From assembly GCF_045037415.1 (NCBI RefSeq), contig NZ_CP173438.1: a stretch of DNA of 64,000 nucleotides. The stretch is one strand, 5' to 3'. Made by a program: the position numbers and the translations under genes. Positions within the stretch are counted from its first letter, which is position 1, and each line of letters opens with the position of its first letter. Source of the DNA: Escherichia coli (GTDB taxonomy: Bacteria; Pseudomonadota; Gammaproteobacteria; Enterobacterales; Enterobacteriaceae). This document shows, piece after piece, positions 2,625-55,093 of the stretch. The notes beneath the pieces were generated by a model. That model was not told the DNA's origin. It was given only the letters and a program-made list of their open reading frames with translations, and did not search any database.

Positions 2625-3617
2625 ATGACAATGGCTGTTAAAGGCTTAACTGCGCTAACGCTGGCTGACTGGGGTAAGCGCGTCGATCCAAACGGGAAAG
2701 TCGATAAGATTATCGAGCTTCTCGGTCAAACAAACCCGATCCTTCAGGATATGCCTTTTGTCGAAGGGAACCTTCCTACCGGACACCGAACCACCATTCG
2801 TTCTGGTTTACCTTCAGCTACCTGGCGTTTGCTGAACTATGGCGTACAGCCAAGCAAATCAACCACAGTGCAGGTAACCGATTACGTTGGCATGCTGGAA
2901 ACCTATGCTGAAGTCGATAAGTCACTGGCTGATCTGAACGGTAATACTGCCGAATTCCGCCTGTCTGAAGACCGCGCATTTATTGAAGCGATGAATCAGC
3001 AGATGGCGCAGACACTGTTTTATGGTGATTCCAGCGTTAACCCTCAGCAGTTTATGGGACTGTCCTCCCGCTATTCCAGCCTGTCTGCGGGTAATGCTCA
3101 GAACATCATTGATGCTGGTGGCACGAGTACAGATAACACCTCAATCTGGTTAGTGGTGTGGGGCGAAAACACCGTGCATGGCATCTTCCCGAAAGGGCAG
3201 AAGGCTGGCATCCAGATGGAAGATAAAGGCCAGGTGACACTGGAAGATGCGAATGGCGGCAAGTACGAAGGCTACCGTACCCATTACAAATGGGACAACG
3301 GACTTGCTCTGCGTGACTGGCGTTATGTTGTTCGCATTGCAAACATCGATGTCAGCAATCTTTCAGAACCTTCCTCTGCCGCAAATATTGCGAAGTTGAT
3401 GGTTAAAGCACTGCATCGCATTCCAAATCGTGGCATGGGTCGCCCGGTGTTCTACATGAACCGCACTGTAGGCCAGGCTCTTGATCTGCAATCTCTGGAG
3501 AAAACATCTCTGGCGATCAGCGTAAAAGAGACAGAAGGCGAGTGGTGGACTTCATTCCGTGGTGTACCAATCCGTGAAACTGATGCGCTTCTGGAAACAG
3601 AAGCCCGCGTGGTGTAA
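2625..3617 (+). CDS. Major capsid protein (about 330 aa)
   Basis: Position after scaffold; size typical of HK97-fold capsid proteins; ATG at 2631 has the better RBS spacing; stem-loop immediately downstream. Confidence 0.7.
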   Translation: MTMAVKGLTALTLADWGKRVDPNGKVDKIIELLGQTNPILQDMPFVEGNLPTGHRTTIRSGLPSATWRLLNYGVQPSKSTTVQVTDYVGMLETYAEVDKSLADLNGNTAEFRLSEDRAFIEAMNQQMAQTLFYGDSSVNPQQFMGLSSRYSSLSAGNAQNIIDAGGTSTDNTSIWLVVWGENTVHGIFPKGQKAGIQMEDKGQVTLEDANGGKYEGYRTHYKWDNGLALRDWRYVVRIANIDVSNLSEPSSAANIAKLMVKALHRIPNRGMGRPVFYMNRTVGQALDLQSLEKTSLAISVKETEGEWWTSFRGVPIRETDALLETEARVV

Positions 3618-3668
3618 CGCCTGTTATTAACCTGTGGGTCGTAACAGACCCACTAATGGAGAAAGAAG

Positions 3669-4106
3669 ATGATCACCGACAAACTGTTGATGTTCTCCGA
3701 AGCTCAGGCGGTTACGAATACCGCGGCTTCTACTGACGTAATCGATCTCGGTCCAATTGACGGAAAACGTCGTGATATCGGCGTGGGTTATCCGCTTGAG
3801 TTTTGGGTGCTGGTTAACGAAGCCGCCACGGCAAGTGGTGAGGAAACTGTAAACATCCAGTTGCAGACGAGTGAGAATAACAGCTCATGGTCCACTATTT
3901 ATGATAGTGGCGCACTGGCAAAGGATACCCTGACAGCAGGTAAACGAGTTGTTTCTGCAAAGGTGCCTGCCGGTGTTCAGCGATATCTGCGTGTTAACTA
4001 CTCCGTCGCAACTGGCCCACTAACGGCTGGCGAATTCACTGCTGGTATCAGTCTTGATGTTGATGCCAATACGCCGTATCCGATCCGCTCAAAAGTAACT
4101 GGTTAA
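3669..4106 (+). CDS. Hypothetical virion protein (145 aa)
   Basis: ORF with RBS (GGAGAAAG) in late operon. Confidence 0.55.
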   Translation: MITDKLLMFSEAQAVTNTAASTDVIDLGPIDGKRRDIGVGYPLEFWVLVNEAATASGEETVNIQLQTSENNSSWSTIYDSGALAKDTLTAGKRVVSAKVPAGVQRYLRVNYSVATGPLTAGEFTAGISLDVDANTPYPIRSKVTG

Positions 4107-49910: not shown

Positions 49911-52900
49911 TTATTCCGGGCGCGGCTTCAGCGGGAAGCGGCGGCGCACCAGCACAAAGAACAGCGGCACGAAGTAAATAGCCAGAATAGTGGCCGAAAT
50001 CATCCCGCCCATTACGCCAGTACCCACCGCATGCTGACCACCGGAACCGGCACCTGTGCTGGTTGCCATTGGCAATACGCCGAAGATAAATGCCAGCGAG
50101 GTCATCAGAATCGGGCGTAAACGCTGACGGCAGGCGTGGAGCGTCGCTTCAAACAGGTCGTGGCCTTTTTGGTTCATCTCGTTAGCAAACTCGACGATCA
50201 GGATGGCGTTTTTCGCCGATAAACCAATGACCGTTAACAGGCCCACCTGGAAGTAAACATCGTTTTCCAGCCCGCGCATCCAGGTTGCCAGCAGCGCGCC
50301 GATAACCCCCAGCGGCACGACCAGCATTACCGAGAACGGCACCGACCAGCTTTCATACAGCGCAGCCAGACACAGGAATACCACCAGCAAGGAAATGGCG
50401 TACAGCGCCGGAGCCTGCGCGCCGGAAAGCCGCTCCTGATACGACATCGCCGTCCACTCCAGACCAAAGCCGTTTGGCAACTGCTTCACTAACGATTCCA
50501 TAATATCCATCGCCGTACCGGTACTGACCCCCGGTGCGGCTTCCCCAACAATCTCAACCGCAGAATAACCGTTATAGCGTTCCAGACGCGGCGAGCCTGT
50601 CTCCCAGCGTGAGGTCGCGAAAGCAGAGAAGGGCACCATGCCGCCATCTTTATTTCGGACATACCAGAGATTGATGTCATCTGGCAGCATGCGATACGGC
50701 GCAGCTGCCTGCACATAGACTTTCTTCACGCGACCGCGATCCATAAAGTCATTCACATAGCTCGAACCCCAGGCGGTTTGCAGTGTGTCGTTAATATCGT
50801 CGATAGCAACGCCCAGCGCCTGAGCTTTACGCTGGTCGATATCAATCTGCAACTGCGGACTGTCGTCGAGGCCGTTATGGCGCACACGGGTTAGCTCCGG
50901 GTTTTCCGCTGCCAGCGCCAGCAACTGGTTTCGTGCTGCCATCAGCGCATCGTGACCCGCTCCAGCGTGGTCCTGCAACTCCATATCAAAACCCGCAGAA
51001 CTACCAAGACCGCTAATTGCTGGCGGGCTGCTGGCGATAACGCGAGCTTCTTTAATCTTGTTAAACGCCTTCGTTGCACGCTCGATAATGGCAAACGAGG
51101 TGCCGGTCTTACTGTCGCGTTCGCTCCAGTCTTTCAGGCGGATAAACATTCGCGCCACGTTTTGCCCGTTCCCCCCAGGGCCAGAACCCACGGTGGCAAA
51201 CACCGACATGATGTTGTCTTTTTCATGGGTGAAGTAATATTTCTCGATTTGCTCAACGACTTTCAGGGTCTGTTGCTGGGTTGAACCGCTGGGCAACTGT
51301 ACCGAGGTAGTAAACATGCCACGGTCTTCCAGCGGTAAGAACGACGTCGGCAAACGCAGGAACAGGAACACCATGCCGCCAAGCAGCAGGACATAAATCA
51401 CAATCCAGCGCAGGCTACGGTGGAGAATTTTCGCCACCCCTTTTTCGTAGCGTTCGGCGTTGCGGTTAAACATCTGGTTAAACCAGGCAAAAAAGCCTTT
51501 TTGCCCGTGATGCTCACCTTTTTTCAGTGGCTTAAGTAGTGTGGCACACAGAGCCGGAGTGAGGATCATCGCTACCAGTACTGACAGCACCATCGCCGCA
51601 ACAATGGTAATAGAGAACTGGCGATAGATGGCACCGGTGGTGCCGCCGAAGAAGGCCATTGGCACAAATACCGCCGAAAGCACCATCGCAATCCCGACCA
51701 GTGCCCCCTGGATCTGCCCCATCGATTTACGTGTGGCTTCGCGAGGAGTGAGTCCTTCCTCACTCATAATACGTTCGACGTTTTCCACCACCACGATGGC
51801 ATCATCCACCAGCAGACCGATCGCCAGCACCATCGCGAACATGGTTAAGGTGTTGACGCTATAGCCGAAGGCATAAAGCACCGAGAAGGTTCCCATCAAC
51901 ACCACCGGCACGGCGATAGTGGGTATCAGCGTGGCGCGGAAGTTTTGCAGGAACAGATACATAACGAGGAAAACCAGGGCGATAGCTTCCAGAAGCGTTT
52001 TCACCACGTCTTCAATGGAGGCTTTTACAAAAGAGGTGGTTTCATACGCCACCTTGTATTCCAGTCCGTGTGGAAAATACTGCGCCAGCTCGTCGAGACG
52101 ATTGAGCACCAGCTCCGCTGTCGCCATTTCGTTCGCGCCGGAGGCCAGTTTTACCCCCAGCCCGGAGGCTGGCTTACCATTGAAGCGGCTAAGATAATCG
52201 TATTTCTCCGCCCCCATTTCGACGGTGGCGACATCGCCCAGCCTTACCTCTGAGCCGTCCTGATTCACCCGCAAGGTGATATCGCGGAACTGTTCTGGTG
52301 TTTGCAGCAGTGACTGGGCGTTAATGGTGGCGTTGAGCGCCTGCTTATCGACGGAAGGCGTACCACCAAGTTGCCCAACCGCAATCTGCGCGTTCTGTGA
52401 TTCAATGGCATCGGTGACATCTTTAGCCGTCATCTGGAAACTGTTGAGTTTCGCCGGGTCCAGCCAGATACGCATGGAATATTGCGAACCATAGGCATCG
52501 ATATCCCCGACGCCATTCACGCGGCTTAACGGGTCCTGAATATTACTGGCAACATAATCGGCAATATCCTGTTTATCCATCGAACCATCGGTAGAGACGA
52601 AGGCAATGGTCAGAATGTTGGTATCGCCGGTTTTACGCACCGTCACGCCCTGATTTTGCACCGCCTGCGGTAACTTTCGCATGGCTGATTGCAGCTGGTT
52701 TTGTACTTGCTGCACGGCTTCGTCCGGATCGGTGCCTGCTTTAAAACTTAACGTGACAGATGCCTGACCGGTGCCGCTGCTCTGAGATGACATATACATC
52801 AGATTATCGAGGCCGGTCATATTTTGCTCGATAACCTGGGTCACGGTGTTTTCCAGCGTCTGGGCCGATGCGCCGGGATAGTTAGCGGTCACTCGCACAT

Positions 52901-53024
52901 TCGGTGGCGCGAGATCGGGGTATTGTTCAACGGGCAATGAAAAAATCGCCAGGGTACCTGTCAGACACAACAGGATTGCCAGCACCCAGGCAAAAATGGG
53001 GCGATCAATAAAGAAATTCGCCAT
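49911..53024 (-). CDS. acrD: RND aminoglycoside efflux pump AcrD
   Basis: 1037-aa RND transporter. Confidence 0.95.
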
Positions 53025-53094
53025 TAAAAGAGGACCTCGTGTTTCTGCGTATCGTTGTAGGCTTGGCTTGCTTCACTGTAGCGGCAAGGTACGA

Positions 53095-53112
53095 GCCAAT
53101 CGTGGAGAAAAA
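53095..53112 (-). promoter_or_regulatory. BaeR-binding site upstream of acrD
   Basis: Minus-strand TTTTTCTCCACGATTGGC, one mismatch to the reported BaeR consensus TTTTTCTCCATDATTGGC. Confidence 0.7.
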
Positions 53113-53187
53113 AAGGAGTTAATGTAAATTATCATGCCCTTTTATACTGAACCTTAAGTGCCACTATTCTTTGGTCAATAAGAGGCA

Positions 53188-54888
53188 TTACATCAGCTGA
53201 CTTTCCTCACCCTCCGCAGAGCGAAAGCTAATACTCACTAACGTGCCGCCGCCGGAAGGTTGTGAAAAAGTCAGCGTCCCACCCAATCTTTCCGCGCGTT
53301 CGCGCATGATATTCAGACCATAATGGCCTTCGGGTTCTTTCGGTTCACCGATGCCAATCCCGTTGTCGCGAATATAGACTGTGTGATTGCCATCCGGCGC
53401 GGTGACGCAGCTAACGGCGATTTCGCTGGCGTTGGCGTGCTTCATCGCATTCAGCACCGCTTCGCGAATAATTTGCAACAAATGCACCTGCATTTGCGCA
53501 TCCAGCGCCAGGGTTGGCAGACGGCAGTCGAGGGTCAGTTTGGCGCTGGTTTGATTTTGTAACGTATCCAGCATTTCCCTCAACGCGGAGGGGAGATCCG
53601 CCTGCTGCAGCGTCAGGCGGAAAGTAGTCAACAGCTCGCGTAACTGCCGATAAGCATCATTCAACGCCTGGGAAAAATCGGCCATGATACTTTGTGCGGT
53701 GGCGTTATCTTCCGGTATCGAACGCTTCAGTAACGTCAACTGGATACGTAAGTAAGAAAGTACCTGAGCCAGCGAGTCGTGCAATTCGCGGGCGATGGTC
53801 GCACGTTCTTCCATCAACAATAACTGCTGAAAATGCTTCTGCGCCTGATTAAAGTACAAACCGCGTCCCAGCATCGACGAAACGCTGTTAAGCAGCGGTT
53901 CTGATGATGAAACGTGACTATTTTGCCAGTGCAGTTCTCCGTAAACCGTCTCTTGCATTGTCACCGGTAAAATCTGCATCGGCAATTCCGGGTTTGGCTG
54001 CCCTTCGCTAATCCGCCAGTTGTCACCGACATTTAACTCCAGATATTCAGCCGCTTCATTGTCGCGAACAATCTGCAAAATATGGCGGAAACAATGCACA
54101 TCAATCTGGCTGGTGTTTAGCGCCTGCGAACACTGATACAACACCTCCAGACGACGCTTGGCCTCGTGGAGATCGCGGGTCTTTTCTTCTACTGACGCCT
54201 CCAGCGAACGGTACAATTTATGCAGCTCGCTCGACATCTGGTTAAAGGTTTTTGCAAGCAGGCCAAGCTCATTCGGCAGGCTGGTATCCAGCGGCGGCGA
54301 GTCGAACTGCCCGTGTTCAATACGCTGACTGGCGGTAACCAGCTGATTCAGCGGGGCAACCACCTGATGGCGTATGCGGCGCAAAGTAAAAAAGACCAGC
54401 GTGAAAATACCGATGCCGCCAGCCAGGGAAATTGCCACCACCAGCAGCATTTTGCGTTCAGCGTAGTGCTGTAAAGCCAGCACGAACAGGTCTATCTGAT
54501 TAACATAATTATTAATATTGGCCTGATACCACGGCAAGTCGCCCTTGCTGAGCCGATTATTCATCTCCAGCCAGTTGGCATTCAGATGCGCATAGCGGGT
54601 TTTTACTGCCTCTGGCACATACCAGACGTTGAGATTGGTTAATACCGGTGAATGCAGTGCCTGCTGAAATAACTGGCGATGTGCATTGAGTTGTGGACTG
54701 CCACTTTGCAAGTCGTAGCCCAGGCGGTAACTCTGCATACGCAGCGATCCGGCAATATTGATAGCCTCAGCGTCGCGTAAACTGCTCGCCAGCGTTAGCA
54801 GAGCGATACCCGTGGAAAGAATCGACAGCAGCACAATGTAAAAAAAGGCCCGGGCCAGACTGGCCGAGACGGGTCGTTTAACAATCAC
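53188..54888 (-). CDS. narQ: Nitrate/nitrite sensor histidine kinase NarQ
   Basis: 566 aa from GTG start (IVKRPVSASLARAFFYIV). Confidence 0.95.
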   Translation of the reverse strand: MIVKRPVSASLARAFFYIVLLSILSTGIALLTLASSLRDAEAINIAGSLRMQSYRLGYDLQSGSPQLNAHRQLFQQALHSPVLTNLNVWYVPEAVKTRYAHLNANWLEMNNRLSKGDLPWYQANINNYVNQIDLFVLALQHYAERKMLLVVAISLAGGIGIFTLVFFTLRRIRHQVVAPLNQLVTASQRIEHGQFDSPPLDTSLPNELGLLAKTFNQMSSELHKLYRSLEASVEEKTRDLHEAKRRLEVLYQCSQALNTSQIDVHCFRHILQIVRDNEAAEYLELNVGDNWRISEGQPNPELPMQILPVTMQETVYGELHWQNSHVSSSEPLLNSVSSMLGRGLYFNQAQKHFQQLLLMEERATIARELHDSLAQVLSYLRIQLTLLKRSIPEDNATAQSIMADFSQALNDAYRQLRELLTTFRLTLQQADLPSALREMLDTLQNQTSAKLTLDCRLPTLALDAQMQVHLLQIIREAVLNAMKHANASEIAVSCVTAPDGNHTVYIRDNGIGIGEPKEPEGHYGLNIMRERAERLGGTLTFSQPSGGGTLVSISFRSAEGEESQLM

Positions 54889-55093
54889 ACGCGTCTTCTC
54901 CACAAAAAATCATTAATCTTCCAGTTCGCTGAAACGCAATTTAGTCAGTGATGGGATTATTTGATCTGCCACAGTTTATAGCGAAATAGTTACTTATTCT
55001 GGGCACATGAACATTGCCGATTCCCCTGTAAGTCGGGTAATAACAACACTCATATAAAGAATAAGGTTTTTACAACCAAAAAAGAAGGTCGTT

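Follow-up and report, generated by a model that had tools for sequence, protein, structure and literature searches.

The minus-strand 18-mer TTTTTCTCCACGATTGGC lies upstream of acrD in the window, by which we mean the whole 64,000-nucleotide stretch of Escherichia coli DNA (contig NZ_CP173438.1) that was analysed. We conclude, with a probability of roughly 0.8, that this site is a functional activator operator of the acrD promoter to which BaeR binds directly. The analysis established the letters of the site and their departure from random expectation, showed that they agree with those at mdtA and spy, and measured how well the site is conserved and how rigidly it is spaced. A BaeR operator at acrD is known and ordinary biology and a correct landmark; the sequence-only reading, which had recorded the site as expected biology and a regulatory landmark, was apt in doing so, as this BaeR site has already been described. 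The refinements added here, which are of modest value, concern the register of the direct repeats, a rigid link to a -10 hexamer, and a conserved TTTACA block. Residual doubt about direct binding by BaeR stems mainly from a negative ChIP-exo result. BaeSR-driven expression of acrD and mdtABC aids tolerance of aminoglycosides, beta-lactams (e.g. temocillin), and metals in Enterobacteriaceae, and this contribution of BaeSR-driven efflux to tolerance makes the operator useful as an annotation landmark.

Genomic setting and match to BaeR boxes

The 18-mer, a Nishino-type BaeR box, occupies 53095..53112 on the minus strand (53112..53095 when read 5' to 3'; predicted position -44 to -27). Its letters were checked in the window, and its 3' end is separated from the acrD ATG (53024) by 70 bp, so that both the sequence and the distance of about 70 bp given by the sequence-only reading were confirmed. 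That reading had also named the downstream gene correctly. The 1037-residue product of the regulated gene (49911..53024, minus strand) matched the NCBIfam NF007842 AcrD equivalog with 2265 bits against a cutoff of 1854, and E. coli genome annotations also name the gene acrD. Its upstream neighbour, likewise on the minus strand, is narQ (53188..54903 as the longest open reading frame), identified by NCBIfam NF008184 NarQ (930 bits) and by the K-12 annotation; the NF008184 alignment begins at residue 7 of this frame, and the annotated NarQ start is probably 54888, inside the longest frame.

The site thus sits within the 163-bp narQ–acrD spacer of the E. coli chromosome. Several complete genomes, that of ATCC 11775 among them, match the 501 bp around the site at 100% identity, the 18-mer and its surroundings were unchanged in K-12 MG1655 (2587507-2587524), and of 5404 E. 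coli records, 5326 have at least 99% identity over a 65-bp core. Intrinsic-terminator prediction across the narQ–acrD spacer (53025-53187) returned none, and so none that overlaps the site; read-through from narQ could therefore add to basal acrD transcription. An Rfam search of the spacer, which bears on a structured-RNA or riboswitch reading, returned no family at E <= 1.

The published BaeR consensus, TTTTTCTCCATDATTGGC, is attributed to Nishino 2005 by secondary sources. The acrD site differs from it by a single mismatch, C for T at position 11, whereas the analytic expectation for matches with at most one mismatch was 2.8e-4 in 64 kb of sequence and 0.02 in a genome of 4.9 Mb. With up to three mismatches allowed, the window contained two matches versus 0.23 expected. 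We also compared the three K-12 sites, acrD (TTTTTCTCCACGATTGGC), mdtA (TTTTTCTCCCTTATTGGC), and spy (TTTTTCTCCATAATTGGC), the majority of which reproduces the published consensus string. The description of the acrD site as near-consensus in the sequence-only reading therefore holds as a count of mismatches and is partly circular as evidence, because acrD is among the sites that the consensus summarises. The comparison with mdtA and spy that the same reading had proposed showed that 15 of 18 positions are the same in all three sites, which sit in otherwise unrelated promoters. A leave-one-out pattern that drew on mdtA and spy only (TTTTTCTCCNTNATTGGC; at most two mismatches tolerated) found the acrD site and no other in the 64-kb window, with one mismatch and 0.04 matches expected. 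The tandem pattern TCTCC-N6-TCTCCA gave two matches in the window versus 0.62 expected, which is not significant alone, and support for the repeats comes from cross-species spacing and not from window statistics.

The other window match to the 18-mer (3649-3666, minus strand, three mismatches) was rejected as a BaeR site, as it corresponds, in reverse complement, to the ribosome-binding site of an open reading frame at 3669-4106 and is a chance match. This frame lies just 3' of an epsilon15-like major capsid gene (2625-3617), whose proximity indicates that the window begins within a prophage.

A conserved element wider than the published box

Conservation was assessed at 80 acrD orthologue loci, found by protein and not by motif, with one locus per species and 82-99% amino-acid identity. 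These loci cover about 30 genera, including Escherichia, Citrobacter, Salmonella, Enterobacter, Klebsiella, Kosakonia, Buttiauxella, Cedecea, and Erwinia. Upstream regions were aligned without reference to any motif, and information was expressed in bits per column. On the minus strand, the distal spacer (53187-53137) carried 0.23 bits per column, followed by an upstream block (53136-53120) with 1.51, an upstream repeat (53119-53109) with 1.55, a downstream repeat (53108-53098) with 1.81, a variable spacer (53094-53081) with 0.73, and the hexamer TAnAGT (53080-53075) with 1.66. For reference, the acrD Shine-Dalgarno region (ACGAGGTCC, 53031..53039, minus strand) carried 1.39 bits per column and a segment of acrD coding sequence (53024-52995) carried 1.82. 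The footprint thus stands at 1.5-1.8 bits per column versus 0.23 in the distal spacer. Lack of conservation had been named beforehand in the sequence-only reading as a refuting result, and the site proved to be conserved in 80 orthologous promoters from about 30 genera.

The 18-mer as a whole averaged 1.50 bits per column in the 80 species, and this information was distributed unevenly. Its core, TTTCTCCACG, is nearly invariant and fixed in promoter position in the 80 orthologous promoters, and TCTCCACG[AT]TT was present in 71 of 79 species. Its first two T residues (53112 and 53111) are A or T at about 50:50 across orthologues, and its final GC is variable (0.18 bit at 53096 and 0.54 bit at 53095). 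The conserved element is thus broader than the published 18-base box and shifted relative to it. As a BaeR box, the 18-mer matches and reads in the orientation of the gene, but its register is off with respect to the conserved 11-bp repeats and the TTTACA motif.

The conserved unit is a rigid module that consists of TTTACA, two 11-bp direct repeats (TCTCC-N6-TCTCCACG), and a -10-like TAnAGT. The downstream repeat, TCTCCACGATT (53098..53108, minus strand), is the putative half-site of the promoter-proximal BaeR protomer, and the 9-mer within it, TCTCCACGA, has one mismatch to the BaeR half-site TCTNCANAA. The putative upstream half-site, ACTCCTTTTTT (53109..53119, minus strand), lies exactly 11 bp from the downstream one. 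Spacing within the module is fixed across species. Measured from the CTCCACG core, CT[CT]C was placed exactly 11 bp to the 5' side in 74 of 79 species and TTACA exactly 20 bp to that side in 77 of 79; TAnAnT follows the C of CTCCACG at exactly 27 bp in 76 of 79. Between the -10-like hexamer and the ATG, on the other hand, the distance drifts from 42 to 178 bp. In Kosakonia oryziphila, Erwinia mallotivora, and Phytobacter diazotrophicus, the module is intact and the box is 198, 139, and 91 bp from the ATG, respectively, compared to a usual distance of about 70 bp, which suggests insertions or longer leaders in these three species.

The cross-species majority repeats are TCTCCTTTTTT upstream and TCTCCACGwTT downstream. 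By manual count, the majority sequence TCTCCTTww agrees with TCTNCANAA at 4 to 6 of 7 positions, whereas the E. coli upstream repeat ACTCCTTTT is degenerate (ACTCC) and agrees at 3 of 7. The TCTCC form of the upstream half-site was present in 76 of 80 species; position 53119 is T in those 76, whereas the window, K-12, and nearly all E. coli have A there. Judged by this comparison, the T-to-A change at 53119 in E. coli is predicted to weaken the upstream repeat, and it might relate to the absence of a BaeR ChIP-exo peak at acrD in K-12.

Conserved columns and fixed spacing point to TACAGT (53075..53080, minus strand) as the -10 hexamer, with column counts among the 80 species of T80, A79, n, A79, G72, and T80. 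A search of the spacer for a sigma-70 consensus promoter and a usable -35 found neither, and the lack of a consensus promoter fits an activator-dependent promoter. A conserved TTG (53099-53097) was rejected as a -35 element, as its spacer to the conserved -10 is only 13 bp. The position of the -10 predicts a transcription start at about 53068 (53066..53070, minus strand; K-12 ~2587551) and an acrD leader of about 44 nt; literature searches for acrD transcription-start data found none. Relative to this predicted start, the repeat pair would be centred near -40.5 to -41, a class II position that is typical of OmpR/PhoB-family regulators which take the place of the -35.

Within the upstream block, ATGATAATTTACATTA (53120..53135, minus strand), TTTACA is near-invariant at 53128-53123. 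The block is conserved to the same degree as the BaeR repeats, lies outside the published 18-mer, and is accounted for by no published site. It may serve as a third half-site of the BaeR type, as a single CpxR half-site in reverse orientation, or as an element of another kind. The CpxR half-site GTAAA reads TTTAC in reverse complement, and this TTTAC lies 10 bp ahead of the first CTCC; TTTACATTA agrees with the BaeR 9-mer TCTNCANAA at 5 of 7 specified positions by manual count. A literature-curated CpxR site, GTATAAAAGGGCATG, is located nearby at 53133..53147 on the minus strand (PMC9600279 Table S1, attributed there to Hirakawa 2005). Scored with a CpxR weight matrix made from 40 other curated sites, it reached 5.9 bits, whereas the training sites had a median of 13.7 and the 95th percentile of the background was 9.6; it is also unconserved at its offset in orthologues. 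The weight matrix also found no CpxR-like tandem at a fixed offset across orthologues. We rejected a CpxR box (GTAAA-N5-GTAAA) as the identity of 53135-53120, as the weight matrix speaks against it and only a single reverse TTTAC is conserved.

BaeR control of acrD and rival explanations

Expression of acrD depends on BaeR in published experiments. In 5% ethanol, knockout of baeR changed acrD mRNA by a log2 fold change of -2.91 (p 2e-39), a 7.5-fold drop by RNA-seq, whereas the change was -0.20 in the unstimulated knockout; knockout of cpxR gave a log2 value of -1.87 (PMC7657598). An acrD-lux reporter responded to indole only when baeS and baeR were supplied, and with H250A BaeS the response of the acrD reporter was reduced only partly. 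The ethanol and indole results bear out the envelope-stress control through BaeR that had been proposed from the sequence. With respect to binding, four BaeR sites have been reported in E. coli, acrD among them (PMC2731931), direct regulation of acrD by BaeR with gel-shift evidence in E. coli is cited to Hirakawa 2005, and a gel-shift assay showed binding of BaeR to DNA upstream of acrD from Erwinia amylovora (PMC3915751). ChIP-exo of K-12 in 5% ethanol, by contrast with these reports of direct regulation, gave no BaeR peak in the DNA that precedes acrD, and the authors regarded the gene as an indirect target (PMC7657598).

The same ChIP-exo data are informative about the sites that resemble acrD. 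At mdtA, the BaeR peak (2153931-2153967; TCATAATTCCTCCATTTTTCTCCCTTATTGGCTGGCT) has a signal-to-noise ratio of 10.96 (PMC7657598) and spans the homologous 18-mer and an upstream CTCC repeat, which reads CCTCC within the peak. At spy, mapping of the peak coordinates placed the peaks on distal TCTTCATAA/TCTGCAAAA repeats with an 11-bp period and on the core promoter, and the perfect-consensus 18-mer of spy (1825764-1825781) has no BaeR peak in the published data. The BaeR-occupied spy repeats are of the TCTNCANAA type and are located at 1825823-1825843, 42-62 bp upstream of the spy 18-mer. Because ChIP-exo missed the perfect 18-mer of spy too, its silence at acrD is a weak negative. The 11-bp CTCC period at acrD is also the period of the occupied spy repeats. 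These comparisons suggest that TCTNCANAA is the half-site and that the 18-mer spans one half-site's spacer (the T-tract in the upstream acrD repeat), the next half-site (the downstream repeat), and three flanking bases. On this basis the 18-mer and TCTNCANAA, both published as BaeR motifs, would be reconciled as views of one 11-bp direct-repeat architecture. BaeR-dependent expression and in vivo occupancy of the mdtA site are documented in the literature, and direct occupancy of the acrD site in vivo is probable.

On this favoured reading, regulation would proceed as follows. Envelope stress (indole, copper or zinc, tungstate, or ethanol) activates the kinase BaeS, which phosphorylates BaeR, a winged-helix response regulator of the OmpR/PhoB family. 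A BaeR dimer would bind head-to-tail to the direct repeats ACTCCTTTTTT and TCTCCACGATT, each of 11 bp (53119..53098, minus strand). With its centre about 40.5 bp ahead of the predicted start at about 53068, this pair would fill the place of the missing -35 at a distance of 17 bp from the conserved -10, TACAGT (53080..53075). From this class II-like position, BaeR could recruit sigma-70 RNA polymerase as PhoB does at pho boxes, and recruitment would raise the levels of acrD mRNA and of the AcrD pump. CpxR boosts expression only in the presence of BaeR and would act via the DNA immediately upstream.

An alternative is that BaeR affects acrD indirectly and that the conserved module binds CpxR, another OmpR-family regulator, or some other protein, an account that we consider improbable. 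It would take the ChIP-exo result at face value, in that acrD is BaeR-dependent yet lacks a peak, and could draw on spy, where the perfect 18-mer has no peak and a different site has one, on the merely partial loss of the reporter response with H250A BaeS, and on the decrease in acrD that also follows loss of CpxR. The homologous mdtA 18-mer is nevertheless inside a strong BaeR peak, the CTCC repeats fit both the BaeR half-site and the 11-bp period of the occupied spy site, and gel-shift evidence is cited for E. coli and was shown for Erwinia. CpxR is a poor candidate for the module on its own, as its tandem was undetectable and its effect on acrD reportedly has a strict requirement for BaeR. 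It is similarly improbable that the likeness to mdtA and spy reflects another shared factor or a common promoter architecture rather than contacts with BaeR. Resemblance by chance, which would make the acrD match a T-rich, low-information string in AT-rich intergenic DNA, has in its favour that the consensus was derived from very few sites, this one included, and that T-runs are common between genes. The small analytic and leave-one-out expectations given above, shuffled sequences, and conservation rule it out, leaving it a negligible probability; chance cannot yield a fixed promoter position kept across about 30 genera. The cross-genus footprint thus argues for a functional site despite the indirect-target call of the ChIP-exo study.

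Direct binding of BaeR could also be part of a larger assembly, and two further readings concern the conserved block as a whole. We tentatively propose a composite site, with BaeR on the two CTCC repeats and a protomer of CpxR, or a third protomer of BaeR, on TTTACA, to form a hetero-oligomer; should this hold, which we consider somewhat doubtful, it would extend the main BaeR explanation and not replace it. TTTACA matches the repeats in conservation and keeps a fixed 20-bp distance to the proximal CTCC in 77 of the 79 species, and both the reversed CpxR half-site in TTTAC and the 5 of 7 agreement of TTTACATTA with the BaeR 9-mer provide candidate contacts. The effect of CpxR on acrD and mdt strictly requires BaeR (PMC2731931), and published FRET between CpxR and BaeR, which needs the DNA-binding domains, is consistent with such an assembly, but the FRET signal is weak and was seen in one direction only. 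In addition, TTTACA is a single half-site whose orientation is opposite to that of the BaeR repeats, and the curated CpxR site is elsewhere, at 53147-53133. A related and equally speculative possibility is that the functional unit, rather than being the published 18-mer, is the rigid module of about 60 bp (53135-53075), in which TTTACA docks CpxR or a third BaeR only beside DNA-bound BaeR. If true, this would supply a sequence-level reason why CpxR enhancement of acrD and mdtA strictly needs BaeR, with the corollary that the operator is weakened by the 53119 T-to-A change, which turns TCTCC into ACTCC and may account for the missing K-12 peak. A protein-level reading of the block fared far worse. 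A 20-codon open reading frame (MIIYINSFFSPRLARTLPLQ), from an ATG at 53135 to a TGA at 53073, spans the conserved block almost exactly and has 20 codons in 30 of the 50 species with a start there, as might be expected of a small leader peptide. In 30 of 80 species, however, the start codon is absent from this position and the DNA block is still conserved, the length of the frame ranges from 16 to 39 codons across species, and the variable columns (53122, 53116, and 53113) fall mostly at second codon positions. The frame also has no convincing ribosome-binding site and lies upstream of the predicted acrD transcription start. We therefore rejected the leader frame at 53135-53073, primarily for its missing start codons, and regard it as very unlikely indeed.

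Comparison with known systems

A close counterpart of the acrD operator, as we read it, is the BaeR box of mdtABCD-baeSR (K-12 2153945-2153962; TTTTTCTCCCTTATTGGC), which matches the acrD site at 16 of 18 bases. As at acrD, a second CTCC lies one helical turn upstream, with a TTTCAT motif further upstream, a -10-like hexamer is found 12-14 bp 3' of ATTGGC, and the target is likewise an RND efflux gene that is co-regulated by CpxR. The two differ in that the repeat period is 10 bp at mdtA and 11 bp at acrD, the mdtA site is occupied by BaeR in ChIP-exo whereas acrD has no called peak, and BaeR dependence is larger at mdtA (log2 -4.0 compared to -2.9). The spy 18-mer (TTTTTCTCCATAATTGGC) differs from the acrD site at two positions, and the two promoters share the ATTGGC-N14-TACA[CG]T spacing and an 11-bp half-site period. 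Unlike acrD, spy has two sets of repeats, with ChIP-exo peaks on the distal set and the core promoter and not on the 18-mer, and it has a stronger promoter-like pair, TTGACG-N16-TAATCT, further downstream, so that BaeR may act from further upstream there.

In Pho box promoters, the -35 element gives way to a pair of direct repeats spaced by one helical turn, and a recognisable -10 lies downstream; their regulator, PhoB, is a phosphorylation-activated winged-helix dimer of the OmpR/PhoB family that activates in a class II-like manner. The geometry measured at acrD agrees with this layout. The Pho box half-site is CTGTCAT and is recognised by PhoB, whereas the acrD half-site is of the TCTCC type and contact between BaeR and polymerase is only proposed.

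The acrD BaeR box of E. amylovora, TTCTTCACGATTACTGGC at -166 to -148 (PMC3915751), represents the orthologous element in front of the orthologous gene, and the E. mallotivora orthologue retains TTCTCCACGATT together with an upstream CTTC repeat. The E. amylovora box has more mismatches to the E. coli 18-mer. The box is farther from the start codon in Erwinia (139 bp in E. mallotivora and 148-166 bp in E. amylovora) because the leader is longer.
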